A DNA stretch of 64,000 bases. It comes from Thermoplasmatota archaeon (lineage in GTDB: Archaea; Thermoplasmatota; E2; JACPAO01; JAHFTW01). The notes under the pieces were generated by a model. The model was not told where the DNA came from. It was given only the letters and a program-made list of their open reading frames with translations, and searched no databases. Below are positions 44,757 to 61,201 of the stretch, piece after piece. Position 1 is the stretch's first letter; each line of letters begins with the position of its first letter. The DNA lies in contig DATLBS010000014.1 of NCBI GenBank assembly GCA_035526765.1, forward strand, positions 15,612 to 79,611, read 5' to 3'. The position numbers and the translations under genes are program-made.

Positions 44757-44772
44757 GCTTCGGCGCCCAACC

Positions 44773-44970
44773 GAACCACAGATTCCACGGATTTCACAGA
44801 CCCATGTTCTCAGGCCGTCATGCGCTCCGCGTTCAATTCTGGACCGATTCCAGTCCAACACCCCTGTGACGGCGGGGGCGTCGAACACCAGAAGCGAGCC
44901 GTGCTGGCCGTGCCACGCGCCGCCGTCGGAGGCGCCGGTAAACCAGAGCCTGTACCAACACGCGATGCCC
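44773..44970. repeat. Composite intergenic repeat 3' of polB: CACAGAT-array module, then GCGCTCCGCGTTCAATTCTGGA module, then GTGCTGGCCGTGCCACGCG module
   Basis: Shares modules with 21791, 63800-63915, 8914 and 33613-33860. Confidence 0.55.
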
Positions 44971-45061
44971 AGACTGCGTGCCGCAACACGTTGTCGGTGA
45001 CCCAGATGGCTTTGGCGTCGCATCCCGGCAACCTCAAGTGCAAGCACCCACGCTTCCCCGC

Positions 45062-45403: not shown

Positions 45404-45600
45404 TGCGCATCCTCTGGGCCGTCCTGGCCGCCGTCGTGGTCGTGGCGATGAGCGTCTACCTGTCCTCCGCGTACCGCAACCCCATGTACGCCGTCCTGGG
45501 CCTCGCCGCTGGACTCGTCGTGGTCATCGGGGGCCTTGCCAGCATGATGGTCAAGCGCCGGTCGGGGCCGCCCCCCTCATCCCCGCCCCCGCCCACCTGA
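45403..45600 (+). CDS. Small membrane protein (65 aa), TGATG-coupled to the previous gene
   Basis: MRILWAVLAAVVVVAMSVYLSSAYRNPMYAVLGLAAGLVVVIGGLASMM. Confidence 0.4.
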   Translation: MRILWAVLAAVVVVAMSVYLSSAYRNPMYAVLGLAAGLVVVIGGLASMMVKRRSGPPPSSPPPPT

Positions 45601-45680
45601 CCGTCGAGGCCTTCAGCGATGCGGGAAGCCGCAAAGCCAAAGCACGGCCGCAGGCCTCGCCCCGCGTGAAGCATTGGCTG

Positions 45681-46139
45681 ATGAAGTCCGAGCCCGAGTC
45701 GTACTCCATCGACGACCTGGCGCGCGACGGCACGACCGACTGGACCGGCGTCCGGAACTTCAAGGCCCGCAACTGGATGAAGGAGATGCAGGTCGGCGAC
45801 AAGGTCCTCTTCTACCACAGCAACGCCGATCCTCCCGGCGCCGCCGGTGTGGCCGAGGTCTGCGCAGTGGCCCACGCCGACCGCACCCAGTACGATGCCA
45901 GATCGGACTACTTCGAGCCCAAGGCCACCCCGGAGAAGCCGTACTGGTACTGCCCGGACATCAGGTTCGTGGCGAAGTTCACCCGCTTCGTCCCTCTGCA
46001 GGAATTGCGCGACAGCGATGCGCTGAACGGCATGCTGCTCACGTCCGGCAAGGCGTCACGCCTTTCGGTGCAGCCGGTGGACAAGAAGCACTTCGATGCG
46101 ATCGTCAAGATGGGCAGCAAGGTTTCGCCCCCCACGTAA
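45681..46139 (+). CDS. EVE (PUA-like) domain protein
   Basis: HWLMKSEPESYSIDDL..WTGVRNFKARNWMKEMQVGDKVLFYHSN.. is the typical EVE/Thy1-like fold signature. Confidence 0.7.
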   Translation: MKSEPESYSIDDLARDGTTDWTGVRNFKARNWMKEMQVGDKVLFYHSNADPPGAAGVAEVCAVAHADRTQYDARSDYFEPKATPEKPYWYCPDIRFVAKFTRFVPLQELRDSDALNGMLLTSGKASRLSVQPVDKKHFDAIVKMGSKVSPPT

Positions 46140-46340
46140 CCACAGATGGCACAGATGCCCAAGATGCCCGCCCAGCCCCCTGAGCAGGGCTTGGTGGTGC
46201 TCCAAATGCCCTTCAGTGGATTGGTCTGGGCGGTCGCGTTCGCGCAGCGAACCCAGCGCGCGCAGCGCAAGGGGACGAAGCCGGCCGCGCGGTGAGCGCG
46301 GCCACGATGCTGCGACCGCCCCGTCCTCCGAGGGGTACGA
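46136..46340. repeat. Left copy of an approximately 200-bp direct repeat (CACAGAT module + structured W element) bounding the lower-GC island
   Basis: About 75% identical to 60127-60335 over its length. Contains the identical 28-mer GCCGGCCGCGCGGTGAGCGCGGCCACG. Confidence 0.6.
46228..46321. ncRNA. Candidate structured RNA 'W' (copy A): closing stem GGGCGGTCGC/GCGACCGCCC, hairpin GTTCGC/GCGAAC, hairpin GGCCGCGC-GGTGA-GCGCGGCC
   Basis: Two stems show compensatory changes relative to copy B (60224-60316). No match to tRNA or 5S recognised. Confidence 0.45.
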
Positions 46341-46391
46341 GGCCCGGAGGTAGAGGACCCTCTTTGGTGGTAATCTCACCTCCCCTGTTGG

Positions 46392-46907
46392 ATGCGGTTC
46401 TTCGGAGTTGATCCCATGAAACCCCAAAAACACCCCCGAACAGCAGACATCGCCCGACTTGTCGCGCGAGCGTCCGATGCGAACCGGCCCCAATTGGAAG
46501 CCCACATCGAATGGAACCGGGGCCAGAACCAAATGAGCGAGAACGGCGTGTACAGTTTTGCGCGCCCCATCGTCCACGCGGACTCGATCCTGGAAGGCAA
46601 GCCCTTCCACACGACAAAAACCCAGGACTGGCTCAAGGTGGTCTCCGTGTTCCGGACCATCTACAGCCCCCACAGCCTCCGGATCAGGGTCGTGAATCTG
46701 CGAAAACATGTGCGGTACTGCTTCGACGTGGACGACCTGGAAAAAGCCGAGGAGTTGGGCAAGAAAGAGGGCCGCGCCATGGAGAAGGCCCTTTGGGTCA
46801 AGCGCGAGAAGCCTCAGGTCGTGGGCCAAGTCATCCTGGAAACGGACGTGGATGCCATGCTGGCGGCAATCGCGGCGCGCAACAGCCTAGGGGGCAAAAC
46901 CAGATGA
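46392..46907 (+). CDS. Hypothetical protein (island cargo)
   Basis: ORF in the lower-GC region. No motifs recognised. Confidence 0.4.
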   Translation: MRFFGVDPMKPQKHPRTADIARLVARASDANRPQLEAHIEWNRGQNQMSENGVYSFARPIVHADSILEGKPFHTTKTQDWLKVVSVFRTIYSPHSLRIRVVNLRKHVRYCFDVDDLEKAEELGKKEGRAMEKALWVKREKPQVVGQVILETDVDAMLAAIAARNSLGGKTR

Positions 46908-47297
46908 TTTCTGCACGTTCTTGTTCAAATTTCCGGGTGCGTAACGATTACACAATTGCCTGTTCCAGTGTATTGCCACTGGGGACTCGTCGGAACCCAT
47001 ACGGCCGCCCCAGTCTTGTGGGCATCATTGTATGGACGGACCAAATTGAAGGTGAGCGGGTAAGAGTCAGTGCCGTCCGGGGACATCGCGCATGGACCAA
47101 AAGAAAGGCAAGCTGGGGAATCCTCCGGACAAATGGCCACTTCGCGGATTTCGACCGGGGGCGGGGGTAGACCTGGCAAGGGTTGAGCGTTGGCCGGAGA
47201 CATGCAAAACAGCATGGCGAGAAGGCAACATAGAATTCCTAGAGGGGTTCCGTTTGGCATAGAGTTCAGTTTCCTTGGGATGTTTTTTTGGAGATTG

Positions 47298-48152
47298 TCA
47301 CGGCAAATCCATGATGACTTTGAGCGTTGCAATGGTGGTCTCAGTTGTTTGGGATCCTGCTCCGTAGTCAGCCACCGCCCCTACCATCCCGCCGTGTATC
47401 GTTAGTGGCCCGATTGTTCCTACGAACGTCAGAATCTCGTAGAATGTTTCGTTGAGCCAAGCATGTCGGGTGCCGTCGCTTTGGTGCCATCGGCCGCCGG
47501 TTATGGCGTTCCCCTGCGGAGGGCTTGTCTCTCCTGCCCCAATGAAATCATACAGGACGTCATCTTGGGTTGCCACGTGGTATTGCAGAGTTTGCCCAGT
47601 CACGGCGCCTTCCACGGTCCCCAGCCGAGCATGGAAGCCTGCTTTTTGGAACAAGGAGACCATTGATTGGTTTGCAGCAATCAATTCCAGGAGATAGAAG
47701 TCGCCTCGATTCGGGTCATGAGATTGCACGTCGGCCGGAACTTTTGCGGGCGCCGTCAAGGTTGCGTACCTAATGTCGTGAAGCACTTCCAGGCTGTCGA
47801 CCACCCCGGTGTCACAAAGGAAAATGCTGAAGTGGGCGAGTTCTAGATTCCCAGCCACGGGATCTGGCCGGTATCCATCTGGAAGCTGGGCCTTCATCTT
47901 GTCCGCGTCCGCGGCCAGGCTAGTGTAGTAGGCTTGGCAGCCGTTCATTTCCAGCTTCTTCGGGGATGCAGCAAGAACAAGGTTGCAAGCCGTGGAATTC
48001 TGCTTGCAAGAGTCAGGCGTCGATGTGGTGTCAAGCGTGGCTGTCGTCGAGGCGGTGCCGGAAGAGGTTGTGATTGGATTGTTGGTTCGTGAGCCGCAAC
48101 CTGCTAAGGAAAGCATGAGGACCAGGATGCAAGGGATCCAAGCAGTGCGCAT
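47298..48152 (-). CDS. Lipoprotein, hypothetical (island cargo)
   Basis: MRTAWIPCILVLMLSLAGCGS lipobox. Thr/Ser-rich linker. Abuts the upstream regulator gene. Confidence 0.55.
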   Translation of the reverse strand: MRTAWIPCILVLMLSLAGCGSRTNNPITTSSGTASTTATLDTTSTPDSCKQNSTACNLVLAASPKKLEMNGCQAYYTSLAADADKMKAQLPDGYRPDPVAGNLELAHFSIFLCDTGVVDSLEVLHDIRYATLTAPAKVPADVQSHDPNRGDFYLLELIAANQSMVSLFQKAGFHARLGTVEGAVTGQTLQYHVATQDDVLYDFIGAGETSPPQGNAITGGRWHQSDGTRHAWLNETFYEILTFVGTIGPLTIHGGMVGAVADYGAGSQTTETTIATLKVIMDLP

Positions 48153-48153
48153 G

Positions 48154-49839
48154 TTATGCATCTCCAGGATGTGTGGTCCTACTTTGCGTTTCCGGGGTTC
48201 GAATCCAGGGTAGCGCAATGGAAGCCGGATTGCTCGGGCCAGCCAATCGGGGGTGCAGCGCCCAGAGCGTGGTGCGGCCGGTGCGCGAACGCAGCAAGAC
48301 TCCATCGGCTTCCATCCGGCGCATGTGGTACGAGAAAAGGCTAGTTTTCGGCACGGGACTCCCGTGCAAGCCCAATGCCTTGCGAATCGAATCCGCGTCC
48401 ATCGGCGTGGCGGCTTGGCCTAGGATTTCGATGATGCTCTTGCGGATGGGGTGGCGCGAATCGGCCAGGGCATTCTGCACAATCCTATCAGATGCCCCCA
48501 GGGGGTAAGCGGGCTCGAAGTGTTGGCGGTGGCCGTGCGAATACACTTTGATGAGATCCGCGTCCGCAAGGATCTGGGCATGGAAATTGAGTGAAGAACG
48601 ACGCAAGCCCACGGTCTGCATTAGCTGCGGGGCGCCAATTCCGGGAACTTCCCGGATTAGTTTCAGCAGCTGGACGCGCGTGGGGTGTTCCAGGGGTTGG
48701 GCACGAGAATTTCTTAGCAGGAAAAACCGGATTCCCTTCGCAACGCTCGACGAGGAGGCAACAAGCCATGCAAGTAGACTGAAGCCGGCAAGGGCTCCTA
48801 GGGCCGGCAGCCATTCCCGAGTGCCAAAGACTGCCACCCCATCAATTCCAAGGTAGCTCGCTTCGCCATCCAATTTCCACTGGCTGCTGGGCGCCCCATA
48901 CCTGCCTTGGAACTTGAAGTCGCCAATGGTTTGAACAAGACCCAATTCTTTGTTCACGAATCGGGCGTCGACGCTCGTGCTCCCAACGTCAGCAAAGGCG
49001 ATGTCGCCGTCGTAATGACCCTCAAGGGATTCAAGAAGAGGATTCCAAAGACCGCCGCGGTCTTGTTGAAGATGAATCGCCGTTGAGGGGGCCGTGATGA
49101 GCACGGCAATACGGTCGTAGTATCCCGTCGTGGAATAGCCCAAGGGGTCGCTGAACTCTGTGCCCTGGTGGGGATAGATTCCGGTGTGGATAACGCGATC
49201 CCCACCCAGGGCAACGGATGACCCATACGCAAGAATCGCGAATTCCCCAGTGTATGACCGGGTATCGGCTTGTTCGTGATTCCAGCGGCCCGCTTGCTCG
49301 TAAGGGGCATAGTGGCGAGGCGCTTCATTGGTGCCTTGCAGTGTAAATTCATAGCGGTGATCTGGAATCTCAATCGACTGCTTCCCGGTCTCATCAAGCT
49401 GCAATCGGATGGCTTGATGCTCAGTCGGGGGGAGGAAACGAACGGCCGAAATGATTTGCTCGTTCCGGATCTCAACGGTACCAGTAAAAGCAAAGTCTTC
49501 GTTCTTCTGTTCCGGAGGCTCAGGGGCGTACGCAGCCCCTTGGCCCACGGGGCTCTCTCTGCTTGTTCTGGCCTTGGCCAGAGGATCCGAAAGAATTTGG
49601 ATGTGGGCGCCCGTAACGGAAAAATTGGCTGTGATGTTTCCTGAGTGCCAGAAGGATTCGAAGGCGATGCCGGCCAAGTTCGCGAGGCCCTGGTACCGGC
49701 CGTTCAAAGCAAGCGTGCCTGAGGAAACGATGTCGCCTGAAACATGGGTCGTATCAGGAGGCTTGGCGATGGCGGCCGGCAAGAAAGCCAGGATGCAGCA
49801 CGCCGCCGCAGCGACAATCTGAACCCTGCTTCCGGACAT
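48154..49839 (-). CDS. Membrane-tethered one-component regulator: signal peptide, extracellular domain, single TM, cytoplasmic tandem winged-helix domains
   Basis: Signal peptide MSGSRVQIVAAAACCILAFLPAAIA. TM helix LPALGALAGFSLLAWLVASS. C-terminal LIREVPGIGAPQLMQTVGLRRSSLNFHAQILADADLI plus a second wHTH. The cytoplasmic part is homologous to 28522-29070. Confidence 0.65.
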   Translation of the reverse strand: MSGSRVQIVAAAACCILAFLPAAIAKPPDTTHVSGDIVSSGTLALNGRYQGLANLAGIAFESFWHSGNITANFSVTGAHIQILSDPLAKARTSRESPVGQGAAYAPEPPEQKNEDFAFTGTVEIRNEQIISAVRFLPPTEHQAIRLQLDETGKQSIEIPDHRYEFTLQGTNEAPRHYAPYEQAGRWNHEQADTRSYTGEFAILAYGSSVALGGDRVIHTGIYPHQGTEFSDPLGYSTTGYYDRIAVLITAPSTAIHLQQDRGGLWNPLLESLEGHYDGDIAFADVGSTSVDARFVNKELGLVQTIGDFKFQGRYGAPSSQWKLDGEASYLGIDGVAVFGTREWLPALGALAGFSLLAWLVASSSSVAKGIRFFLLRNSRAQPLEHPTRVQLLKLIREVPGIGAPQLMQTVGLRRSSLNFHAQILADADLIKVYSHGHRQHFEPAYPLGASDRIVQNALADSRHPIRKSIIEILGQAATPMDADSIRKALGLHGSPVPKTSLFSYHMRRMEADGVLLRSRTGRTTLWALHPRLAGPSNPASIALPWIRTPETQSRTTHPGDA

Positions 49840-50001
49840 CGCGGCAACCACTCGCGTGTCCCTATAAATCTCTTGGCGCAGCGTTTGCTGGATTGTTCCA
49901 ATCAACGTTACACAGTTGATGATATACCCTGACTCCATCGCCGCGTTTCATATGGTTACGTCCGCGCCCTTCGCTTTGGTTCCCCTTCCACAGGAGGAAC
50001 G

Positions 50002-50613
50002 ATGAACGTCTGGTGGATGCTCTGCCTGGCGGGTGCCACCTGCGGGGCGGTGTTCGTCGCCTCGCATCTTCTTGGTCCCTATTTTCGGTGGTGGCGAGAG
50101 CAACCCCGCGAAACCCCCTTGGAACGCCGCCAACGCCGGCTCGCGAACGCCGTCGAGAACTCCTTCGGAGCAGCCGCGGACGGGCACCCCTGGGATGCCC
50201 GTTGGTGGGGTGCCAAGGCATGCCGCTTGGACCCGCGCGCACCATCGGCCATGCATTCGCTTGGACACGCCTGGATGCTCTGCAACCGACCCGTCCTGGC
50301 GTTGAAGCACCTTGAGCGCGCCGTCGTCTTGTTGGACGAGGGTGTGTGCGCGGATGACCCAATGGAGCTCACGGCGGAGATTGCCGTCGATGCCAGCCGA
50401 TGCTGCGCCATGCTCCGTCTCGATTGCACCGACCCTGTGGAGAAAGAACAGTGGGGGGAGGGCGTGCTGCGCTGGGCCCGCGTTGCCATCGAATCGAAAC
50501 CTGACGTGGCCCAGGAACTCCGTTCCAACCACTACTTGCGGGATCTAGAATCCGCGATCCACGTCCTGTTGACCAGCCTTGACTCCAAGGCGCAACCCCT
50601 GGGGATCCGCTAA
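50002..50613 (+). CDS. N-terminally anchored helical-repeat (TPR-like) protein
   Basis: MNVWWMLCLAGATCGAVFVASHLL TM anchor. Helical repeats follow. Confidence 0.4.
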   Translation: MNVWWMLCLAGATCGAVFVASHLLGPYFRWWREQPRETPLERRQRRLANAVENSFGAAADGHPWDARWWGAKACRLDPRAPSAMHSLGHAWMLCNRPVLALKHLERAVVLLDEGVCADDPMELTAEIAVDASRCCAMLRLDCTDPVEKEQWGEGVLRWARVAIESKPDVAQELRSNHYLRDLESAIHVLLTSLDSKAQPLGIR

Positions 50614-50875
50614 TGCTTGCGCCTCTGCTTTTCCACGCGTCACCTCAAAACGGGAAACCCTCGGGTTCGGGGCTGCCGCCGAGCAAACGCGTGGAATGTG
50701 TGTCATGTTGCTCGCGTGGCAGCCCCGTTTTCCTCTCTAATCCCCAACTTGCAACTGGCAATCCCATGCCAAGAGCCCACCGTCAATTTGAATCTATGAA
50801 ACCGGCACCCGCATCGTCATCCCCATCTCGCCGGGTCCTCTTCCCCATCCCAAAACATCAGGAGATTGACCACCC

Positions 50876-53800
50876 TTGACATTGAATTTTGCCGCTTCGA
50901 AGAAATCCCCGTTGCCTTTCTTGGTGGCGGCCCTCCTGGTCGCTGGGGCCTTCGCGCACGGGGTGGGTGCCCAATCGGATCCGCCCATCAATTGCCAAGC
51001 ACTCGTGATCGGCCCGATTCCCGACGTCGGGCCAATCCCTTTGCCGCTAGTCCCTGGCGGGGGGATTCCCAAGCTGGGCCCGTGCACCGCTTTCCAACTT
51101 TTCAACACCTTCGTGCAAAAGGACCAGAACCGTGACGGCGCCGGCGACGATTGGCAGAAATCCTACGACCTCGACGTCCTGGGCGGCGACACGGATCACG
51201 ACGGCTTGACGGACCTGAACGAGTACAAGTGGCTCTCCAATCCCATCGTCGCAGACAGCGATGCGGATGGTTGGCAGGATGGGCCCGAAGCTTCTTACTG
51301 GAGCAAGATGGCCAGATCGGAAGCCAATCCCCCACCCGTTGCAGGGTACGCCGTTGCCGGACCCGGATCCCAACTCGATACCGACGGCGACCATGTGCCC
51401 AACATCATGGACGCAGATTCCGACAACGATGGACTGCTGGATGGAGCGGAGAGCAATATCTACCACACGGACCCCGCGGTGGCCGACACGGACCAGGACG
51501 GCATCCTGGACGGAGGAGTCACACCCCTTGGTGCCCCTCACATCAATGGAGAAGTCCATGACTACGGCACCAATCCAGTCCAAGGCGATTCCGACGGGGA
51601 CGGCTTGGAGGATGCCCAAGAAATCCAGTACTGGCAAAGCCGCGGCAACCTGACCACCGGTGCCAACCGCGTGGACACGGACCATGACGGACTATGGAAC
51701 GCCGTCGACCTGGACTCCGACAACGACGGATTGAGCGACGGCGAAGAAGTCACAACCTATCACAGCGACCCAACGTTGAGCGACACGGATGGCGACTCGA
51801 TGCCCGACGCCTGGGAGGCCCACCACAGCTTGGACCCAGCAAGTGCGGCGGATGCAAACCTCGACGCCGACGGTGATGAACTCGCGAATGTGGCCGAGTA
51901 CCAAGCCGACACGGATCCCCATGACATGGACACCGACAACGACCTCCTGCTGGACGGCGAGGAAGTCAACACGTACCACACCAATCCCTTGAACGGGGAT
52001 TCGGATTCGGACGGGATGCCGGATCGTTTCGAGATCCAGCACGGCCTGCTCCCTCTGGACGCAACGGATGCCGTAGCCGACCCGGATGGGGACTCCTTCG
52101 ACCAAGGCGCGGACGGCAGCATCGAACAAGCCTGGCCCAACCTCGCTGAATACCAGTACGGCCGCCCCATCGGATACTCAGAGGCCGCCTCCGGCCCGTG
52201 GTTGGCTGGCACGGATCCCCACAAGGCTGACACCGACGGCGACGGCGCTCCCGACGGTTACGAGGCATACTATGGAACGAACCCTGTCCTTCCTGCGGAT
52301 GGCAGCACCGATGAGGACAAGGATGGCCTCAACTTCACGCAAGAAGTACGCCACGGCACCGACCCAGGCGACCCCGACACCGATGGCGACGGGTTGTGCG
52401 ATGGCGGACGCGCCGCCAATTGCTTCTTCCCGGGGCTGGGCACCACAGGCTTCCAGCCGGGAGAATCCGATTACGGCTCCGTGCCTTGGATGACGGATTC
52501 GGATGGCGATGGCATCCCCGATGGCCAGGAAGCCCAGAAATGGGACCCGAGCGCCACCGGCCGCGCCCAAGACCTCGACCACGACTCCTTGGGCGGGATC
52601 ATCGACTCTGACAGTGACGGCGACGGGCTGGCGGATGGCTCCGAGATTGTATATCATGCCGACATGGCTGTGTCCGATTCCGACCAGGACGGCCTCAATG
52701 ACGGCCCCGAGGTCAACACTTGGGCCACTAGTCCCACTAGCACGGATAGCGACCAGGACGGCCTCTTGGATGGAGCGGAAGCCATGGCCCACCACACGGA
52801 TCCCGCTGTGGCGGATTCGGATGGGGATGGGGTTGGCGACGGCCAAGAAGTCAACAGGTTGGGAACCGACCCGTTGAGCGCGGATACCGATCAGGATCAT
52901 CTGCCGGATGGTTGGGAAGCCGCGGAAGGCACGCAGCCTCGCGTTTCAGATGCGGGCCAGGACATCGACATCGATGGCCTCTCCAACGCCTATGAATTCA
53001 TCATTGGCACCCACCCAAACTCGAAGGATTCCGATGGAGACGGTATGCCTGACACTTACGAGGACACCTACCTTCTGGACCCCGCACACGACACCGCCGC
53101 CGGTGACGCAGATGGGGACGGGCTTGCCAACCTGGACGAGTACGCCCAAGGCACGAATCCGTTGGTGGTCGACAGCGATGGCGACGGCATCGACGACGGT
53201 CCCGAAATCCACTTGCACCAAACGAATCCATTGATGAATGACACCGACAACGATGGCCTGGGGGACGGCGTCGAGTTGGCGGCGTGGAACATGCTTGGCT
53301 CCTCGGCATGGAACACCAACTATGATGGCGACACGTTTGCCAACAACCTCCTCGACTCGGACTCCGATGGGGACCAGCTCTCTGATGGGTACGAGTTCGT
53401 CACCAGCCACACCGACCCCAAGGACACGGATTCCGATGGCGACGGCTTGACCGACTACCAAGAGGTCTTCGTGTACCAGGGCCAATACGACCCCAACAAG
53501 GCCGACACCGATGGCGACGGCCAAAGTGACGGCGTCGAGGTCGCCTTGGCGGACACCAATGGGGATGCCGACAAGGACGGCATCAAGAACGGCGACGAGG
53601 GCTCGGTCTACGGCACCGATCCAACCGTCGCGGATACGGATTGCGATGGCATCAACGACGGCCCCGAGCTTGCCTATTGGGGAGCAACGTGGAGTATGGG
53701 CGGGAACCGGTTGAGGCAAGGCGACGTCGATGGAGACACGTTGAAGGACGGCCTCGAGATTGCGTCCATGGATGCCCCTGGGGGCACCTTCACGCGCACC

Positions 53801-55744
53801 TTGCCCGACAAGGCGGACAGCGACAACGATCTTTTGGGGGACGCCGTGGAGGCCCAGAACAATGCCCGCGTCACCTGCGGCACCAGCAGCCAACGATTGG
53901 GCCCCGTCAACCCTCTGGGAGGCTTGAACGTGGTCGAGGTCGCCAACAACGCTGCAGCACTTGCCACGTTGGGTCCGGGGGTCTATTATCGGGGGCCGGA
54001 TGGCAATGTGTACGCCAAGGACCTCAACGGGCTCTTTGTCCAGGGCGGCTACGGCATCCACCTCTACCTGAACTTGCCCGGCAAGTCCGCGAACCCGTTG
54101 AGTCAACTCAGCGTCAAGCCAAGCTCAGCCACGTATGCGTCCATGTCGCCGGGCACGAACGGCAAACGGACCGACCCCTTGAAGCCGGACACGGATGGCG
54201 ATGGATTGCTGGATGGCGTCGAGATCACGGCGTCGTTGAATCCGTTTTCTGGGCCTCCATTGGATCCAACGTTGTGCGATACGGACCATGATGGGCTTGG
54301 TGATGGCTTGGAGTTGGGCCTGACTTTGGGGGTGCCTGTCCAGAATGGAGCCGACCCCTCCTGCAATCAACGTGACATGGATCCCGCCACGAAGACCGAC
54401 CCGAACAACCCTGACACGGATGGGGATGGCGCAACGGATGGTCGTCCTGCGCAGGCCAGGGGTCAGGCGTTCGAGGACGGGAACGGCAATGGCCGCTTGG
54501 ATGGTGCCACGAGTGGATATTGTGGCATCCCGGGCGCCGAATCGGATCCCCAGGACGCCGACACTGACGATGATGGGATCAGTGATGGCGCTGAAATCCT
54601 AGGGAGCTTGGGTGGCATCCAAACCAGCCCGTATTGCTTCGATTTGGATGGGGATGGCCTCTCGGATGGTTTGGAGCAGGGCCTGGGGCCTGGCCAATTC
54701 GTGCCGGCCACGACTAGTGGTGGGGTTCTTGTGCAAGGCACCAATCCCGCTCACACCGTGTCCATGGGAAGCTTCGCGTGGCCGACTTGGCAAGCCTGGT
54801 CGGGAACCACCGACTCGGCAAGCCGAAAAATCACGACGCTTGTGGATGATGGCGATTCTGACAATGATGGCGTCATCGATGGCCTAGAGGATTTGAACCA
54901 TAACGGCAAGTTCGGAACCACGGATAGCGCAGAATTGGATGCCAAGAGTCCTGACACGGATGGCGACGGTTTGGCGGATGGCTTGGAGTTGATGATTTGG
55001 GGTTCGACCAGCAATCCCAATTTCACGCCTTACACGTTCCCGGATGCCGTGGCCCAGTGGCACGCGGTGTCCTTGCTGGATGTGAAGCAGAAGCTGCAAT
55101 GGAATCCCGCCAACAAACTCCAAACGGATCCCCGCAACGCGAATACGGACGGCACGGACCTCATTCCGGACGGCCTGGACGTGAATCCCTTGGGGGACGC
55201 CAAGATGACGTTGACATTCGGCTTCTTCCAGATGTTGGAGAAACCCGATGCCGACTGTCCGTGGTGCGAAGACGGTTGGGCGCCTGACGTAAAAATCAGC
55301 TTGTTGGCCACTCTTCCATCGAATGTCGGTTTCACTGCAAACACCATTGAATTGGATCTTCCTCGTGCCAAAGAAGGATTCGACTTAGGTGGTTGGCTTA
55401 ACGCGCATGCGAACTTTGTGACGGATACGGGTTCGCCATCAGGCGTGATGGGATTGGTTTGGACAGGGGGCCGAGTCTTGATGGATCTCTATGACTCTGT
55501 TGATCAATTCCCAACGACATCCGCCTGCAAAGACGCCGTCTGTTTGAGCCTGCATTTCCGGGAAATTGATGACGCACCCTTCGAACCGGATTCGAATGAC
55601 AATGATGTTGATTTTGAACCCTGCAGACGGCCGAACATACTATGGGCAAAACAGCATCCAAGACGAGCCCATTGGCTTTGCCGCGAGCCCCTGTGCCAGC
55701 GGCTTGCCAAGAATCGAGATGCGTGGTGTCGGCGATCCGAATGA
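50876..55744 (+). CDS. Giant (1622+ aa) secreted protein with dozens of thrombospondin-type-3-like Ca-binding repeats (DxDxDGxxDxxE); probable frameshift near 55620, with the reading frame continuing to 55889
   Basis: Signal peptide (TTG start) MTLNFAASKKSPLPFLVAALLVAGAFAHG. Repeats DTDHDGLTDLNE, DSDADGWQDGPE, DSDNDGLLDGAE, DTDQDGILDG, DSDGDGLEDAQE and so on throughout. The last 40 codons of this frame are Arg/Cys/Trp-rich junk, while the +1 frame (55566-55889) continues with protein-like sequence. Confidence 0.75.
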   Translation: MTLNFAASKKSPLPFLVAALLVAGAFAHGVGAQSDPPINCQALVIGPIPDVGPIPLPLVPGGGIPKLGPCTAFQLFNTFVQKDQNRDGAGDDWQKSYDLDVLGGDTDHDGLTDLNEYKWLSNPIVADSDADGWQDGPEASYWSKMARSEANPPPVAGYAVAGPGSQLDTDGDHVPNIMDADSDNDGLLDGAESNIYHTDPAVADTDQDGILDGGVTPLGAPHINGEVHDYGTNPVQGDSDGDGLEDAQEIQYWQSRGNLTTGANRVDTDHDGLWNAVDLDSDNDGLSDGEEVTTYHSDPTLSDTDGDSMPDAWEAHHSLDPASAADANLDADGDELANVAEYQADTDPHDMDTDNDLLLDGEEVNTYHTNPLNGDSDSDGMPDRFEIQHGLLPLDATDAVADPDGDSFDQGADGSIEQAWPNLAEYQYGRPIGYSEAASGPWLAGTDPHKADTDGDGAPDGYEAYYGTNPVLPADGSTDEDKDGLNFTQEVRHGTDPGDPDTDGDGLCDGGRAANCFFPGLGTTGFQPGESDYGSVPWMTDSDGDGIPDGQEAQKWDPSATGRAQDLDHDSLGGIIDSDSDGDGLADGSEIVYHADMAVSDSDQDGLNDGPEVNTWATSPTSTDSDQDGLLDGAEAMAHHTDPAVADSDGDGVGDGQEVNRLGTDPLSADTDQDHLPDGWEAAEGTQPRVSDAGQDIDIDGLSNAYEFIIGTHPNSKDSDGDGMPDTYEDTYLLDPAHDTAAGDADGDGLANLDEYAQGTNPLVVDSDGDGIDDGPEIHLHQTNPLMNDTDNDGLGDGVELAAWNMLGSSAWNTNYDGDTFANNLLDSDSDGDQLSDGYEFVTSHTDPKDTDSDGDGLTDYQEVFVYQGQYDPNKADTDGDGQSDGVEVALADTNGDADKDGIKNGDEGSVYGTDPTVADTDCDGINDGPELAYWGATWSMGGNRLRQGDVDGDTLKDGLEIASMDAPGGTFTRTLPDKADSDNDLLGDAVEAQNNARVTCGTSSQRLGPVNPLGGLNVVEVANNAAALATLGPGVYYRGPDGNVYAKDLNGLFVQGGYGIHLYLNLPGKSANPLSQLSVKPSSATYASMSPGTNGKRTDPLKPDTDGDGLLDGVEITASLNPFSGPPLDPTLCDTDHDGLGDGLELGLTLGVPVQNGADPSCNQRDMDPATKTDPNNPDTDGDGATDGRPAQARGQAFEDGNGNGRLDGATSGYCGIPGAESDPQDADTDDDGISDGAEILGSLGGIQTSPYCFDLDGDGLSDGLEQGLGPGQFVPATTSGGVLVQGTNPAHTVSMGSFAWPTWQAWSGTTDSASRKITTLVDDGDSDNDGVIDGLEDLNHNGKFGTTDSAELDAKSPDTDGDGLADGLELMIWGSTSNPNFTPYTFPDAVAQWHAVSLLDVKQKLQWNPANKLQTDPRNANTDGTDLIPDGLDVNPLGDAKMTLTFGFFQMLEKPDADCPWCEDGWAPDVKISLLATLPSNVGFTANTIELDLPRAKEGFDLGGWLNAHANFVTDTGSPSGVMGLVWTGGRVLMDLYDSVDQFPTTSACKDAVCLSLHFREIDDAPFEPDSNDNDVDFEPCRRPNILWAKQHPRRAHWLCREPLCQRLAKNRDAWCRRSE

Positions 55745-55889
55745 TGAGGACGGGCTACTGACCCTCACTCCGGATATCACAGTATTCGGGAATTTCCTGG
55801 ACAATGCCCGCGTCCACTCCGCCAACCCAAGCGGCGTTGTCATGCCCCCCACAACTAGCGTGCCGCGACAACTTGCTGGTGGCTGCTAA
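55566..55889 (+). other. Probable authentic C-terminal continuation of the giant repeat protein in the +1 frame (frameshift, pseudogene or sequencing indel), carrying the conserved LPRIEMRGVGDPNDEDGLLTLTPDITVFGNFLDNARVH module
   Basis: From about 55625 the sequence reads ADGRTYYGQNSIQDEPIGFAASPCASGLPRIEMRGVGDPNDEDGLLTLTPDITVFGNFLDNARVHSANPSG.., which matches the repeat-protein style (DPNDEDG). Confidence 0.5.
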
Positions 55890-56894
55890 ATGCGAACCAC
55901 TGGCGCGCATCGAACTCCGCAGTCCACTAGCGCGCCCTCTTCCCCCCCTTCTTCTCCTGATGCCCAGCCCCCAACATCATTCTCTGATCGGTTTGCTGCT
56001 CGAAACTTCAGGCAGGTAACACTCTTGTGTCTTGCCGCTTGGGTGCTTTTTCGGATATTCTACGCCCCCTTCGATGGTTGGATTCTAACGCACTCTGATT
56101 CGCCGCATCCGGGGTCAGGAATTCAGAACCCTGCCCTCCTGAGCCTGCATGGCGCTGGTTGGTTCTTCATTGGACTAGGCATCCTCTGGTGCGTTATTTC
56201 GGCCCGTCAGCGAGGCATCACCGATTCTGCATGGTTTGCATTTTTCTCCTTGGCGGCGGGGTTCATTGGCTTGACCTGGATGACGCCTGGCGTCTTGGAT
56301 GCTGAATATCGCAACGGCATCGGATTCAAGGTCGCAACAGAGTCCGGCCTGGTCCTTCTTGCCATCGTATTCCTGGTCACTCCTAGACTTCCCAGATTGG
56401 TGATGGGCACGGACCACACCTCACGCCCGCCAAGAATTGCCAAAGCGAAGTCGCTTCTGCCTGTATCATTGAGGGTTGAACTCTTGGTACTCTCCGCGGT
56501 CCTGTTGTGCGCGTGGGGCATCTCGGCATGGACTCTGCAACGAGAATGGCAGCCCAGTCAAGGATTTTCGACAAATGCGCTCTACGCAGCAGGATCGCCC
56601 CTGCCTTTTCTGGCTGCGAGTTTTGCGCTGATGCTGTTCCATCAATTTCCGATGACCCAGGTCGCGCGGCGCATTCTCTTCTGGCTCTTGATTCCACTGC
56701 AGGGCTTGGCACTCGTCTTGTTTTTGGTTTCCGGGCCCACTGCCCTCCTTGCGGGAGGGACGGATGCTCTATTGGTTGCAATGGTCTTGGTCCAGGCCGC
56801 GGCGCATGCCTGGTGGATATGGACGACAATTCATGTCTGCAGACCCCTATTTGGGTGGCGTGTCCACTGGCAGAGCCCTTCCCAAGGATTGTGA
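55890..56894 (+). CDS. Polytopic integral membrane protein (about 8 hydrophobic segments), hypothetical
   Basis: Segments LLCLAAWVLFRIFYAPF, WFFIGLGILWCVI, AWFAFFSLAAGFIGLTWM, LVLLAIVFLVT, LLVLSAVLLCAWGISAW, LPFLAASFALMLF, ILFWLLIPLQGLALVLFLV, LLVAMVLVQAAAHAWWIW. Flanked on both sides by copies of the 36-aa module. Confidence 0.6.
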   Translation: MRTTGAHRTPQSTSAPSSPPSSPDAQPPTSFSDRFAARNFRQVTLLCLAAWVLFRIFYAPFDGWILTHSDSPHPGSGIQNPALLSLHGAGWFFIGLGILWCVISARQRGITDSAWFAFFSLAAGFIGLTWMTPGVLDAEYRNGIGFKVATESGLVLLAIVFLVTPRLPRLVMGTDHTSRPPRIAKAKSLLPVSLRVELLVLSAVLLCAWGISAWTLQREWQPSQGFSTNALYAAGSPLPFLAASFALMLFHQFPMTQVARRILFWLLIPLQGLALVLFLVSGPTALLAGGTDALLVAMVLVQAAAHAWWIWTTIHVCRPLFGWRVHWQSPSQGL

Positions 56895-57424
56895 GCCCCG
56901 TTGGATTTACCGATGAACGAGTTTTGCTGACGTTGACGCCAAACATCGCGATCTTCGGGAACTTCCTTACGCAAGCGCGCGAGCACGGCATGCTACTCAA
57001 TTTTCTATCCGCACAATCGGGGTTGCCAAAAAAGGAATTGCGGGGGCCGATGAGACCGCGTCCTCGTTTCTACGGCCTGATTCTTTGTTTCGGCGTCCTT
57101 CTTGCGTTTGCCATTGTGTTTGGGAACACCTTTCTCCTTGCCATGAACCCATCTTTCGGCGGGGGTCACGTGCGGCACGCTATCTTGGTCATGGACCGGG
57201 GTGCCCTTGATAACCAGACGGCAAGAGCCCTACTGCCCCCAGCAGACTGGAACGCTTCCGGCAAAGTACAGACCAAACTGCTTGAGGTCATCTTCGCGGA
57301 CCCCACACAGATCGTCCTGGGTGATGTACCAGACCTGCCCAGGCAGGTTCTTGAGATCCCACGAACGGAAATCACATCCATCATCTGGATGGACGAGTCC
57401 GCCTTGTTCAAGACTGGCACGTAA
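56819..57424 (+). CDS. Small single-TM protein whose N-terminus carries the second copy of the conserved module (FPRIVSPVGFTDERVLLTLTPNIAIFGNFLTQAREH)
   Basis: Module conserved with synonymous DNA differences relative to 55704-55817, implying the frame is coding. TM FYGLILCFGVLLAFAIVFGNTFLLAM. The start is uncertain and the gene overlaps the 3' end of the upstream gene. Confidence 0.4.
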   Translation: MDDNSCLQTPIWVACPLAEPFPRIVSPVGFTDERVLLTLTPNIAIFGNFLTQAREHGMLLNFLSAQSGLPKKELRGPMRPRPRFYGLILCFGVLLAFAIVFGNTFLLAMNPSFGGGHVRHAILVMDRGALDNQTARALLPPADWNASGKVQTKLLEVIFADPTQIVLGDVPDLPRQVLEIPRTEITSIIWMDESALFKTGT

Positions 57425-58399
57425 GCGCCTAAGAGGTCTGGCGTCGGAGTAATACACCGGCCAAATGCCGGCGGTGCTCCGCTCCTGCTCCGCGCGCTGG
57501 CGCCCTGCGGTCGCCCGCCGCCTCCCACGACAAGAAGAATCCGGATGCTTAATGCCTGAACCGGCCCGGTGCGGTGTGCCGGACGCGGACGACCAATGAG
57601 GTTGGGTCGGGTCGACCCTGCTGCGGCATCTGGACAACGGCAAGTCGCCGTGCGGTGGGCTGGACGCCCGAACGACCCGATCCGCGGTTCCCGGAGCCTC
57701 GGGCGCCGCTTGGGGCGCCTAGGCTGTTGCAGGCGATGCTGTGATGCCTACGCCGCCCGGGACCGTGTACTGGCTGGATTGCCGGGAATTGAACTACTTG
57801 TACCGCACGGCCGCGTTTGAGGACCCGGTGCAGGCCATGGGGGCCTTCGGCGACCATGACCCTGCGCACCCCGGCAAGACCAGCCAGGCCATCAAGCACC
57901 CCCAAGGCATCGACTGGATCATCCTCGGGGGGAGCCTCCAGGAGCGGGCCAGACCCCGTTCCAACAATGGAGGTTTAGAGAGCCAGAATCGGACGCCCCC
58001 GATGAAAACGAAGAGGATGCTAAGGAGGCGGATTTAGGTGAATAGAAAACCGAGCGTCGGCGCCAGATCTACTTTGGGCGATTCACGAACACCCTTCCCA
58101 AACCTTGGCTGCACGCAGATTCTTGCACTTGTGTCCAACGGAGATCTTCGCCAATGCTCCGTTTGCCTGCGTACCCTTGCCTTCGCCCGTCCAGAATCAT
58201 GTACCCCTCTACGGGGGTACTGTCCAGGCCGGTCAAGGCCAGTACGCGACAAGGACAAGTCGGAACCCCCCAAAGCCCAGTTCCGAACCTCCCCCGCCCA
58301 ATTGGAAGGAGAGTATTTCCCCAAAGAGTGATTACCGGAGGGCACCGATTTGAAGGCCATCGGACGAACGGCTGGAGCGAAGCGGAACCCGGTGGGCCG

Positions 58400-60061
58400 C
58401 TAGCCGATCCAAGGGTTGTTCGGCCAGGGTAGCGCCGGAATTACGCGCGCATCGTTTGCGTGGAAACGCACTGTGTACGCCCCCGACGAGCCGTCGAACA
58501 CGAGCAGGTCGCCGTCGCCGAGGCTGAGGACCTCGAGGACCTCCGGCGCGGGGCCGCCCTTGAACGGCTTGCCGGCGGGCTCCATCGCGGGGACGAAGAC
58601 GCCGACGCTTGGAAGGTCGGGCCAGTTCGCCATCGAGGCATTGGCGGCCCACACCCCGCCGTGGTACATCGACACGAACAGGGTGCCGTTGACGAGGACG
58701 GGGTAGTGGGTGCTGAACATCTCGCCCTGGCTGGGGGGCCACTGCACGTCGATGGGGAGCGTCCACTTGGCGCCCTTCACGACGGTGGTGGGGTCGGTGA
58801 CGTCGAGGATGACGACCTGGCCCGACGAGCGGTCGCTGGGGCGCCCGATGACCTCCTGGCCGGTCAGCAGGTAGTGCCTTCCTTCTTGGACGCCAGGGAC
58901 CGCCCAGACGGAGTGGATGTGCCCGAACATCTGCTTCGGGTCGCCGCCAGGCCTAGCTCCCCAGCTGGCAAGGGCGGTGGCGCGTCCGGGGCCATCGAGG
59001 CGGATGATGTGCAGGCCGCCGTCCCAGTCCGCGAGGTACGCGACCGTTTGGCCGGTGACCGGGTGCTTCTCGATGGAGGCATCGGTGTGGCCGTTGGAGA
59101 GGCGCAGCAGCTCGGGGTCGAGGTGCGTCTGGTCCGTGGGCGTGTAGATGAGGTCCACGGCGAGGCGGGCGCCCGCCGGGGTCTGCCGCACGGTGAGGAT
59201 GTCGAAGTGGCTCAGGGCGTTGCCGTAGCGGGGTACCTGCGGCTCGCACGGGATCGGGTTCGTGACGGGGTTGCCACTGACGTTGGGGAGGGTGCAGGGG
59301 ACCGCCATGAGGCCGGAGGTGGCGACGTAGCGGGTGCCGTCGACGATGGCGGTGCTGATGCTGTGCACGTTGCGGCCGCCAGGGTACTCGTAGAAGTCGG
59401 CGACCTTCGGGGAAGCGGGGTCCGTGAGGTCGACGAGGATGGCGGCGTAGCCGTACGGGACCTTGTCGACGTTGGAGGCCATCGCGTGCTCGCCGCAGGC
59501 ATCCCGCCACACCGGCGCGAAGGGGACCATGCCCTGCGCGTCCACGGCCACGGGCGGCTTGTCGGTGGCGAGGTCGGGGTTCCCCGCGATGACGGCGTAC
59601 CTGCCGTCCGCGAAGACGTCGGCGTCGTACGTGAACTCGTAGGGGAGGACCAGTTCGCCCAGCATCGCGGGCCGGGCGCGGTCGGTGACGTCCATCACGG
59701 TGAGGGCCACGTCGGTCTGGAAGGAGTGGACGACGGCGAGTTGCCGGCCGCCCCTGTCCGCGACGCCGCCGCAGTAACCGGTGCCAGCCGTGGTGCCGAA
59801 GTACGGGCTCAGCAGGGGGTCGTGGCCGAGGACCTCGAAGTTGGGGGTGCTGAAGCCCTGGTGCTGCAAGCGGTCGTCGTGGTCATGCGACTCGGGCAAC
59901 GCGAACGCGGAATCGGCGGGGTCGGCGTCGCCAAAGATGGAGTGGACGGCCCAGGTCGGATCGCGAACCGGCACGTTTGCGGTGGGGGGCGCCGGCTGGG
60001 TCGACGCGCATCCGGCCAGCAGGCCAAGGACCAAGAGTCCGGCTAGGACGAGGGCTCGCAC
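58400..60061 (-). CDS. Lipoprotein with beta-propeller (LVIVD-repeat-like) architecture
   Basis: Lipobox MRALVLAGLLVLGLLAGC. Repeated ..G..YV..SG..V.D... blades (LVNGTLFVSMYHGGVWAANAS, RYAVIAGNP..). Confidence 0.65.
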   Translation of the reverse strand: MRALVLAGLLVLGLLAGCASTQPAPPTANVPVRDPTWAVHSIFGDADPADSAFALPESHDHDDRLQHQGFSTPNFEVLGHDPLLSPYFGTTAGTGYCGGVADRGGRQLAVVHSFQTDVALTVMDVTDRARPAMLGELVLPYEFTYDADVFADGRYAVIAGNPDLATDKPPVAVDAQGMVPFAPVWRDACGEHAMASNVDKVPYGYAAILVDLTDPASPKVADFYEYPGGRNVHSISTAIVDGTRYVATSGLMAVPCTLPNVSGNPVTNPIPCEPQVPRYGNALSHFDILTVRQTPAGARLAVDLIYTPTDQTHLDPELLRLSNGHTDASIEKHPVTGQTVAYLADWDGGLHIIRLDGPGRATALASWGARPGGDPKQMFGHIHSVWAVPGVQEGRHYLLTGQEVIGRPSDRSSGQVVILDVTDPTTVVKGAKWTLPIDVQWPPSQGEMFSTHYPVLVNGTLFVSMYHGGVWAANASMANWPDLPSVGVFVPAMEPAGKPFKGGPAPEVLEVLSLGDGDLLVFDGSSGAYTVRFHANDARVIPALPWPNNPWIG

Positions 60062-60126
60062 ATTGGCGCAGCGGGGAAGCCGGGGGAAAATGTTTGTGGC
60101 GAGGCAGCGCGACCGATCCCGCGACC

Positions 60127-60335
60127 GACGGAACCACAGATGTCACAGCTGACAAGGATGCCCATGTTCCAGGCCAACTGAGCACCCTGCTGCAATCTCC
60201 AGACCCTCGACCTGCTTTGGCCTGGGCGGTCCGCGCACGAAGTGCGCCGCCCCGAGCGCAGCGAGCGTGAAGAGCCCGGCCGCGCGGTGAGCGCGGCCAC
60301 GGCGGCGGGACCGCCCTCTTCCCGGGGTGCAGGGG
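60127..60335. repeat. Right copy of the approximately 200-bp direct repeat (CACAGAT module + W element)
   Basis: Aligns with 46136-46340. Identical core GCCGGCCGCGCGGTGAGCGCGGCCACG. Confidence 0.6.
60224..60316. ncRNA. Candidate structured RNA 'W' (copy B): closing stem GGGCGGTCC/GGACCGCCC, hairpin GCGCAC/GTGCGC, hairpin GGCCGCGC-GGTGA-GCGCGGCC
   Basis: Compensatory substitutions in two stems relative to copy A. The third hairpin is identical. Confidence 0.45.
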
Positions 60336-60391
60336 CGGAGCCCCTGCGAAGGCTTTGCGCCTCGGACGAACGGCCGCAAGCCGTTCGGCCG

Positions 60392-61201
60392 CTAGCCCAC
60401 CATTTTCTTGTACACGCGCCAGTTGAGCACGCCGAACAGGGCGGCCGCGACGGCGCTGGCCACCAGCACGATGGCGATCTTGTCCCACGGGTAGTCGGCC
60501 ACCATGGTGCCGCCCACGTTGGCCCCGATCATGAGCTGGCGCAGCACCTCGACGAGGTAGTTGACGGGGTTCAGCTCGACCACCTTCTTCAGCCAGTCCT
60601 TGTCGATGAGCTCCTTGGCCTGGAAGGCGCTGCTGAGGAACATCAGCACGAAGAACAACGGGAACGCCGATTGGGTGGCCTGGTCCGACTTGGTCTTGAG
60701 CGCGAGGGCCATGACGCCGAGCCCCGCGATGCAGGCGCTGAACACGGTGGCAAGGGCGATCATGAACAGGGCGCCCACGACGCCGCTCTTGACGGAGGCC
60801 CCGAAGGCGATGGCGATGAGGAGCACCAGGAGGCCCTGGGCGGCCACACGGGTCATCTCGGCGAACATGCGCGCGGTGAGGACGATCCAAGGCTGGGCGG
60901 GCGTCGTCCGGAGCTTGTCGAAGTAGCCGGTGCGCAGGTCCACGATGAGGGCGGCGCTGGAGTTGGCCATGCCGACGAAGATGGTGAACAGCAGCACCGC
61001 GGGCACGATGAAGGACTCGTACTCGACGCCCGGGTAGGCGGCCTGGAACGCGGGCTGCTTGGCGATGCTGCTGAACAGGTTCCCGAACAGCAGGAGCTGG
61101 ATGACGGGCATCACGATGCCGAACACCAGCACGACGGGGATGCGCGGGAACTGGCGGATGTTGCGGCCGTACATCAGGCCGAACGTGCGGAGGGTGCTCA
61201 T
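60392..61201 (-). CDS. ABC-2 type transporter permease
   Basis: MSTLRTFGLMYGRNIRQFPRIPVVLVFGIVMPVIQLLLFGNLF.., six TM segments. ATGA overlap with the upstream ATPase gene. The track ORF's 190-aa N-terminal extension is rejected. Confidence 0.8.
   Translation of the reverse strand: MSTLRTFGLMYGRNIRQFPRIPVVLVFGIVMPVIQLLLFGNLFSSIAKQPAFQAAYPGVEYESFIVPAVLLFTIFVGMANSSAALIVDLRTGYFDKLRTTPAQPWIVLTARMFAEMTRVAAQGLLVLLIAIAFGASVKSGVVGALFMIALATVFSACIAGLGVMALALKTKSDQATQSAFPLFFVLMFLSSAFQAKELIDKDWLKKVVELNPVNYLVEVLRQLMIGANVGGTMVADYPWDKIAIVLVASAVAAALFGVLNWRVYKKMVG

Follow-up and report, generated by a model that had tools for sequence, protein, structure and literature searches.

A low-GC island of a Thermoplasmatota archaeon as a probable degraded integrative element with a truncated tyrosine recombinase gene

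Integrases of the classical type II (pNOB8/SNJ2-like) form a described class in archaea, where intergenic attB sites also occur, and the domain PF16795 (Phage_integr_3) is that of the suicidal integrases (PMC8371274). Integrated copies of the likewise archaeal SSV-type elements (SSV1, pTN3 and pT26-2) carry an N-terminal integrase pseudogene at their border. The cell-wall or replacement type of flexible genomic island known from aquatic prokaryotes, such as GI1 of Haloquadratum walsbyi, is a further kind of variable locus (PMC4535781, PMC4033161). In this study we analysed 64,000 nucleotides (nt), referred to as the window, of contig DATLBS010000014.1 from a soil Thermoplasmatota archaeon (assembly GCA_035526765.1, positions 15,612 to 79,611). 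A preliminary description had reported an island of lower G+C content (GC) at 46136-60335, bounded by two diverged 200-bp direct repeats and without a visible integrase or transposase. We concluded that the low-GC segment is probably a degraded integrative element of about 12.1 kb, which was inserted site-specifically by a tyrosine recombinase.

The locus resembles the type II elements in that the integrase belongs to the PF00589 family and stands at the edge of the element beside an att arm, the cargo is variable, the composition differs from that of the host and short direct core repeats are present. It differs from them in its target, which is not a tRNA gene but a hairpin region between genes, next to a dispersed repeat of the host, and in its arms, which form a long imperfect palindrome around the core; in addition the window copy has no catalytic domain and the integrase family is uncharacterised. 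With the SSV-type elements the locus has the N-terminal pseudogene at the border in common. Like the flexible islands, it occupies a variable slot flanked by conserved genes, differs in composition from the core genome and carries surface proteins as cargo, giant repeat-rich ones included, along with many hypothetical proteins. Unlike those islands, it carries an integrase remnant and att arms at its borders, which argues for site-specific integration rather than homologous recombination in the flanks.

Truncated integrase gene and left end

The only open reading frame (ORF) of the island with a cytoplasmic product, hereafter int(N), spans 46392/46416-46907 and lies 70 nt to the right of the left repeat. 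It encodes 171 amino acids (aa), with a GC of 0.60 and a GC at third codon positions (GC3) of 0.77. A HMMER search with this sequence against 1.84e9 proteins found 16 proteins, the best of which had lengths of 378-442 aa and shared 33-56% identity with residues 11-166 of the query. PF00589 was present in the C-terminal half of all homologues scanned (10/10), the homologues matched PHROG integrase families 1 and 216, and the nearest PDB matches of the family were XerA/XerD (E 1e-6). In the alignment the window protein ended at ..AARNSL, exactly where the homologues enter the catalytic domain. An integrase is thus visible in the island after all, as 46416-46889 is the N-terminal 43% of a tyrosine recombinase from which the catalytic C-terminal 57% has been lost. 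The profile searches proposed in the preliminary description had not revealed it. Among all island ORFs with coding signal and the alternative-frame ORFs of 56.4-58.4 kb, Pfam, PHROG and NCBIfam gave no match to a mobility function and recognised only HTH_20/ArsR (594 aa) and TSP3 (1,622 aa) proteins; it was the homologue search that uncovered the fragment.

The C-terminal half of the integrase was not found by tblastn anywhere in the 64-kb window, and the catalytic R..HxxR..Y domain is missing from the window copy. We concluded that this copy is the remnant of a tyrosine-recombinase element and not a functional member. The gene, annotated as the 171-aa "hypothetical protein" VM286_04805, is by its sequence an integrase pseudogene. 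AlphaFold prediction of the 171-aa fragment without an alignment gave a predicted local distance difference test (pLDDT) score of 36 and was unusable. Viral contigs scanned with integrase P0245 gave no match, and searched with the integrase alignment they returned only generic recombinases of 30% identity.

The features at the two ends of the element were as follows.

46120 to 46235, plus strand: host dispersed intergenic element, with the head AACCACAGATGGCACAGATG and about 60 nt more, ending CTGGGCGGTC; GC 0.66, host-like
46242 to 46269, plus strand: putative attL crossover region, with core-like GCGCAGCGAACCC (46242-46254) and a second copy GCGCGCAGCGCA (46258-46269)
46270 to 46415, plus strand: putative element-side arm (P') of attL, comprising the 3' half of the left repeat and the spacer to the integrase gene
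46416 to 46907, plus strand: int(N), truncated tyrosine recombinase gene; homology over 46416-46889, catalytic half missing
58279 to 58347, minus strand: putative P arm of attR on the element side, matching the P' arm in inverted orientation (CCAAAGAGTGATTACCGGAGGG at 58321-58342)
58348 to 58399, plus strand: putative inner part of attR, with the hairpin CCGAT..ATCGG, TCGGACGAACGGC (58360-58372) and core-like GGAGCGAAGCGGAACCC (58374-58390)

The P' arm contained the hairpin GGCCGCGC-GGUGA-GCGCGGCC (46283-46303), then GACCGCCC (46314), a second hairpin CCTCCG..CGGAGG (46325-46350) and CTCTTTGGTGGTAATC (46360-46375). We compared it with the contexts of the full-length homologues on five independent contigs, labelled L255/L256, L257, L258, L259/L260 and L261. 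The arm was kept upstream of six integrase genes, that of the window and those of the five comparators. In the alignment 130-150 nt upstream of the full-length integrases were conserved with window 46290-46415, and the common features were the GGUGA-loop hairpin, GACCGCCC, the CCTCCG..CGGAGG hairpin, CTCTTTGGTGGTAATC and a GGGGGTC..GACCCC hairpin before the ATG. An nhmmer profile of the arm recovered these copies with E values of 1e-15 to 1e-27. Because the arm is conserved upstream of the integrases, the 3' half of the left repeat is element sequence. In 5/5 contexts the integrase stood at the edge of variable cargo beside host genes, e.g. UvrC and acyl-CoA dehydrogenase; three of the comparator contigs begin 78-135 nt upstream of the integrase gene. 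No cargo was common to the window island and the other elements.

The motif GAGCGYAGCGA(ACCC) was present upstream of the integrase genes in L255, L257 and L259/L260, and also at the right end of L258. L259 and L260 carried an identical integrase in different contexts, and the two sequences diverged exactly 5' of GGCCGAGCGCGAGCCC. This point of divergence places the element edge at a motif of the GAGCGYAGCGA(ACCC) type, which is present in the window at 46242-46254. The left repeat is accordingly best read as a presumed attL, in which the core lies between the host dispersed element and the inner element arm. In this arrangement 46120-46235, the 5' half of the left repeat, would be the host-side arm (B), and strand exchange would have occurred within the crossover region.

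An N-terminal fragment at the edge of an element is also what an SSV-type "suicidal" integrase, split by integration and with its int(C) part at the other end, would leave behind. An exact 13-nt inverted match, GCAACAGCCTAGG, links the break point at 46879-46891 to 57718-57730 on the minus strand, one copy sitting precisely where the integrase homology ends. However, the window holds no int(C) partner and the frame continuing from 57717 was not integrase-like. The homologues contain PF00589 only and not the PF16795 of suicidal integrases (PMC8371274), their conserved att arm lies upstream of the intact gene and not inside it, and int(N) reads into the element and not out of it. We therefore regard a split integrase as very improbable. 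An inversion at the 13-mer that would have separated int(N) from int(C) was rejected for the same lack of an integrase-like continuing frame. The match itself may be due to chance (E ~0.01 for the region searched) or may be the trace of an internal rearrangement. Rfam gave no match at the integrase break point and no tRNA remnant.

Right end and extent of the element

A hidden Markov model (HMM) of the P' arm gave, beyond the upstream copies, only two matches in the window and its relatives, and both were inverted. One was window 58347-58279 on the minus strand (E 2e-4) and the other L258 9994-9924, also on the minus strand (E 4e-4). The site in L258 (JGI 3300044739, Ga0467042_0001765) lies 10 kb downstream of the intact integrase, after lower-GC cargo with Mrr, HNH and ParB-domain genes, and is followed by the hairpin GGCGAAACG-CGGUGAGCGCAGCGAACC-CGUUUCGCC and a host gene of GC3 0.98. 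Window 58294-58404 aligned with L258 9940-10050 at a score of 39, compared with 10.1 +/- 1.9 (max 17) for 500 shuffles, a difference of about 15 standard deviations; the aligned segment included CCAAAGAG..TACCGGAGGG and GGAGCGAAGCGGAACCC. The right end of the window island thus consists of an inverted arm and a core-like motif of the GAGCGYAGCGAACCC type, and its inner part abuts the stop codon of a 553-aa gene. It was located through the homology with L258 only and not by k-mer search, as exact k-mers yielded only a 12-mer and the inverted 13-mer as att-like repeats at the compositional borders. The att sequences of the two ends belong to one family. From the arms and the L258-homologous right end we concluded that the element spans approx. 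46,242-58,390.

The composition of the segment was clearly different from that of its surroundings. The mean GC was 0.596 in 46.35-58.4 kb (1-kb windows, n=12) and 0.688 +/- 0.026 in the rest of the window (n=52; Mann-Whitney p ~9e-8), and over the 12.1 kb of the element it was 0.594, against 0.688 for the host. The tetranucleotide correlation with the host was r 0.57-0.65 in the island and 0.76-0.96 in the other 5-kb windows. GC3 was 0.54-0.77 for the island ORFs and 0.86-0.98 for those of the flanks. The GC dip of the preliminary description was thereby confirmed, and the codon-usage and tetranucleotide analyses that it had proposed agreed with it. Its two AT-rich stretches (46.9-48.3 and 55.3-58.4 kb) were indeed lower in GC, but the 45-55% quoted for them was too low; in 300-nt windows they had 0.51-0.60, the lowest windows of the island having 0.51-0.57.

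The low-GC DNA stopped at approx. 58.39 kb, 1.7 kb before the right repeat, and the jump in GC3 coincided with the right end at 58.28-58.39 kb. This coincidence of the att ends with the compositional borders supports the reading as an integrated element. The 14.2 kb formerly given as the length of the island must therefore be reduced to approx. 12.1 kb (~46.25-58.39 kb). The DNA between the repeats is not wholly foreign, since 58400-60119 is host backbone.

The source is a contig of a metagenome-assembled genome and the change in composition is abrupt, as would also result if lower-GC DNA from another organism had been joined in during assembly. In an independent Logan assembly of SRR8554898, however, we found a 12,661-bp contig that encodes the 171-aa protein, has the identical gene order and corresponds by offset to window 46,067-58,727. 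This contig spans both junctions, so the junctions are real, and they are structured as att sites. The probability of an assembly chimera is close to nil. The SRR8554898 contig ends ~50 nt outside attL and ~330 nt outside attR, just within both flanking host genes. Assembly graphs often break where strains with and without an element coexist, and the contig ends may hint at a presence/absence polymorphism.

Host flanks, variable slot and the repeats

The element is flanked by the following features.

45669 to 46139, plus strand: EVE-domain gene, left backbone flank; 3' part of a 439-aa ORF (44820-46139), Pfam EVE E 1e-48 at residues 284-431
58400 to 60061, minus strand: 553-aa lipoprotein gene (LVIVD-like), right backbone flank; GC3 0.92, lipobox LLAGC, LVIVD E 0.24
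60120 to 60391, plus strand: right repeat; host head 60120-60165, core-like GAGCGCAGCGAGCG 60254-60267, inner P'-like segment to GACCGCCC at 60309-60316
60392 to 61201, minus strand: host ABC-2 permease, 269 aa; Pfam ABC2_membrane, 89% identical to the orthologue in relative L085, homologues 269-273 aa

PolB is encoded at 41733-44756 and is 100% identical to HUR61661.1, and the gene content of the host is archaeal (FtsZ, PolB and RadA, and in relatives also Cdc6 and GINS). In the protein collection the closest relatives had a PolB of 79-83% identity, the best match outside the source being 83%. In relative L085 (JGI 3300044704; PolB 83%, ABC-2 89%, 551-aa 80% and EVE 63% identical) the order was PolB, 134 aa, 252 aa, EVE, 300 aa, 312 aa, 551 aa(-), ABC-2(-) and ABC ATPase. 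All these genes had a GC3 of 0.92-0.99, and the 300-aa and 312-aa genes had no counterpart in the window. Its 551-aa gene, 80% identical to the 553-aa gene of the window, adjoins ABC-2 in the same orientation. In L086/L087 (PolB 81%) we found PolB, 109 aa and EVE, immediately followed by a gene that shares 75% identity with the 553-aa gene and has the opposite orientation. L083 (PolB 78%) showed PolB, two small genes and ABC-2. EVE orthologues thus follow downstream of PolB in L085 and L086/L087. We concluded from this synteny that EVE and the 553-aa gene are backbone and that the slot between them is variable; the element is absent from the syntenic site in L085, L086/L087 and L083. A scan of the genome collection with the EVE protein gave distant EVE domains only and no close relative, and when the 439-aa EVE ORF and PolB were looked up as exact sequences no entry was returned.

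The 553-aa orthologue follows EVE directly in L086/L087 and has the opposite orientation there; in L085, as in the window, it is next to ABC-2 and points towards EVE. As these genomes diverged, the segment with this gene was either inverted or moved. Within the 439-aa "EVE" ORF the GC3 periodicity changes frame, and 44978-45403 (141 aa, hydrophobic) looks like a real gene, with a product weakly similar to a 106-aa protein of L083 and a 252-aa protein of L085; the ORF is probably two genes.

A slot that holds two unrelated genes in L085, nothing in L086/L087 and the island in the window could also be that of a replacement flexible island, swapped among strains through homologous recombination in conserved flanks, as in Haloquadratum or Alteromonas, with the integrase fragment and the att-like sequence as incidental debris. 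The cell-envelope cargo is as in such islands (PMC4033161, PMC4535781), and the Logan contig ends just inside both flanking genes. Still, both low-GC ends carry family-specific arms in the geometry of an integrated element, and the integrase fragment lies at the very edge and has the composition of the island (GC 0.60). The comparison is one with genus-level relatives (best PolB 83%), among which no conspecific genome was found. We consider replacement improbable as the origin of the island. Exchange by homologous recombination in the slot is possible as a later process, without explaining the ends.

The two repeats of the preliminary description are real as sequences. 46126-46349 and 60120-60340 are ~70% identical in direct orientation (blastn E 1e-22 to 1e-23). 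These ~220-bp copies share a 27-nt identical block, and the indels of 2, 4 and 5 nt between them indicate that the sequence is non-coding. Their head (the first ~45 nt) reads (T)TTCGGCCCCNACGNAACCACAGATNNCACAGATNNCA. Further copies of the head were found at 21792(+), 21879(-), 33935(-) and 44776(+), besides that at 60134(+). It follows FtsZ (21.8 kb) and PolB (44.8 kb) directly at their stop codons, forming an 88-nt palindromic pair in the case of FtsZ, and it also stands after the gene ending at 33.96 kb. At the left repeat the last 7 EVE codons run into it; the orthologues in L085 and L087 end ..KMGHG and ..KMGR. Variants, CCACGGAT, were present in L085 and in 56 stretches of IMG/VR contigs of very varied GC. 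We concluded that the head is an intergenic element of a generic, dispersed kind rather than a feature particular to the island.

In this dispersed element the unit CAC(A/G)GAT occurs two or three times with a spacing of 9-10 nt (AACCACAGATNNCACAGATNNCAC). The element was observed at 21792-21879, 33905-33951(-), 44756-44845, 46126-46170 and 60120-60165 and in L085 at 1276-1293 and 15278-15340, often beginning right after a stop codon and sometimes as an inverted pair forming a 60-90-nt hairpin. The 56 IMG/VR stretches with the pattern had a GC of 0.37-0.68, with several per contig in some, and it seems to be a very widespread repeat type. Rfam covariance models gave no match near the gathering score for the repeat body, and viral contigs scanned with the 25-nt core gave none. 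A metagenome scan with the 21-nt hairpin of the repeat returned 101 hits, none extending past the hairpin, which were rejected as homologues and taken for chance GC-rich hairpins.

That the two repeats are attL and attR of a 14.2-kb island at 46136-60335, with the 553-aa gene as cargo, has several points in its favour. The copies are in direct orientation with a 27-nt identical block, the integrase family's core-like motif and inner-arm sequence occur in both, and the integrase fragment adjoins the left copy. The 553-aa gene, however, has a GC3 of 0.92 and is kept together with the head and the same promoter motif beside ABC-2 in L085, which has no island. The comparison at the repeat boundaries proposed earlier thus spoke against the repeats as borders, as did this host gene lying between the low-GC DNA and the right repeat. 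The inverted outer arm and the L258-like attR are situated at 58.28-58.39 kb, at the compositional border, and the outer arm is absent from the right repeat. A repeat-bounded island is accordingly quite improbable. Core genes had been described as resuming directly beyond the repeats; on the right, the host sequence already restarts 1.7 kb before the repeat.

The right repeat itself contains ~50 nt of inner P'-like sequence; past GACCGCCC it diverges from the left copy as well as from every other arm. The arm HMM detected no outer arms, and no integrase adjoins the repeat. Its tail, TCGGACGAACGGC (60362-60374) and the hairpin GAACGGC-CGCAA-GCCGTTC, has TCGGACGAACGGC and the ending GGCCGCTAGCC in common with the attR of the island (score 18 vs 9.4 +/- 1.7). 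In L085 the orthologous spacer, which separates the 551-aa gene from ABC-2, aligns with the head and a promoter-like motif, GGAAAATGTTTG, and this shows that the right repeat lies in host DNA outside the island; the ~190-nt body is missing from the L085 spacer and was not found elsewhere in the searches made. The chances are about even that the right repeat is the relic of a second insertion of a related element whose interior was deleted. A paralogous, unoccupied target site is possible, though we judge it the less probable origin. Like solo att relics or miniature derivatives (cf. miniature inverted-repeat transposable elements (MITEs) from insertion sequences), the right repeat is gene-less and has core-like and inner-arm sequence of both ends; in its case the presumed derivation comes from ~100 nt of similarity and one 13-mer, which an unoccupied paralogous target could also present.

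For the integrated element we suggest the following course of events. A tyrosine recombinase would have inserted it where the EVE gene and the 553-aa lipoprotein gene converge, in the intergenic hairpin region. The integrase gene would later have lost its catalytic C-terminal half, and the element would then be locked in place unless a related integrase acted in trans. A related element would separately have been inserted beside another host copy of the head and have lost its interior, giving the right repeat. Several points weigh against an integrated element. The direct core repeat is short and imperfect (GCGCAGCG-AACCC vs GCGAAGCGGAACCC), and the att arm could in part be the integrase promoter rather than binding sites. 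L258 is the only two-ended comparator and its attL is cut off by the contig end. An exact empty site, with EVE facing the 553-aa gene and the hairpin unoccupied, was not present among the relatives compared; as the closest of these are only ~80% identical in protein, the timing of the insertion is loose. In addition, no replication, capsid or conjugation genes were found in the island scans. We nevertheless hold to a degraded integrative element as the likely nature of the segment.

Cargo genes and meaning of the element

The cargo block (46925-57424) had a GC3 of 0.54-0.76 and contained the following genes.

46925 to 47332, minus strand: secreted 135-aa protein
47298 to 48305, minus strand: lipoprotein, signal and lipobox read directly
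48154 to 49938, minus strand: membrane-anchored ArsR/HTH_20 protein, 594 aa (Pfam HTH_20, NCBIfam ArsR)
50002 to 50613, plus strand: anchored 203-aa protein
50876 to 55744, plus strand: TSP3-repeat surface protein, 1622 aa (Pfam TSP3_bac, NCBIfam CglD-type TSP3)
55890 to 56894, plus strand: polytopic membrane protein
56891 to 57424, plus strand: ORF of ~177 aa

The cargo consists of ORFan secreted and membrane proteins, and the 594-aa protein matched only itself among 5.8e9 proteins. A role in the cell envelope is suggested for these genes. The preliminary description of foreign, mobile-element-derived DNA with accessory cell-envelope genes was therefore supported in substance, and its lipoprotein, membrane-tethered winged helix-turn-helix protein and calcium-repeat protein were recovered by the lipobox, HTH_20 and TSP3. 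Its tetratricopeptide repeat (TPR) anchor depended on a sub-threshold match, and its "LVIVD lipoprotein" is the host backbone gene, with a Pfam LVIVD match of only E 0.24. The ORFs on either side of the polytopic gene, 55566-55889 and 56891-57424, both contain LLTLTP(D/N)I(T/A)(V/I)FGNFL..AR.H, and the former overlaps the TSP3 gene at its 3' end in a different frame; a module of the cargo may have been duplicated here, or a frameshift may have occurred.

Three further observations were made in the window. A small GC dip (0.63-0.64) at 12000-13500, with an ORF of GC3 0.70 at 12810-13304, lies ~1-2 kb from the window's only tRNA gene, tRNA-Arg(TCG) at 10928-11002. A 1,638-aa ORF at 36767-41683(-) has an AT skew of -0.5 to -0.6 over 4 kb and a GC of up to 0.75; it shows only Pfam HHH_5 and zinc-ribbon hints and is conserved beside RadA and PolB in L085 and L086 (1,363 and 1,632 aa), with no other annotation. 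Among the contigs long enough for context, the most similar ABC-2 (87%) was that of L081/L082. It has a 487-aa protein downstream, to which two tandem paralogues of the window, at 2.1-6.7 kb (2132-6674), are related. The synteny of the ABC operon is not kept even at this distance.

The att regions are long imperfect palindromes or hairpins. Their outer stems, GGGCGGUC/GACCGCCC, GGUGGCCGC/GCGGCCACC, CGGUUCGGCC/GGCCGAACCG and GGUGGGC/GCCCACC, vary between elements yet stay paired and enclose the conserved GAGCGYAGCGA loop motif. The body of the right repeat folds with an outer stem around the motif, and the homologous regions of L255, L257 and L259 fold alike with different stem sequences. This covariation is suggestive, the sequences being few. 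A speculative reading, which we consider rather unlikely, is that the integrase family reads structure more than sequence, inserts beside the host dispersed repeat and leaves gene-less miniature relics; insertion may then be preferentially beside the CCACAGAT head element. If this were true, it would mean repeat-targeting, hairpin-reading integration in Thermoplasmatota, reminiscent of integron attC sites or folded single-stranded att sites.

As a whole the locus is a genomic island of an ordinary, known kind, for which the borders are now corrected and the integrase is identified. An island formerly without a mechanism becomes a defined case: it has a remnant of the integrase and its two att ends, and the integrase of a comparator is intact. 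For annotation it is a reminder that flanking repeats can mislead on island borders and that a "hypothetical protein" such as VM286_04805 can be an integrase pseudogene. To our knowledge, almost no mobile elements have been characterised in the Thermoplasmatota of soil. The present element adds to them an undescribed family of integrative elements with a non-tRNA, hairpin-type intergenic target.

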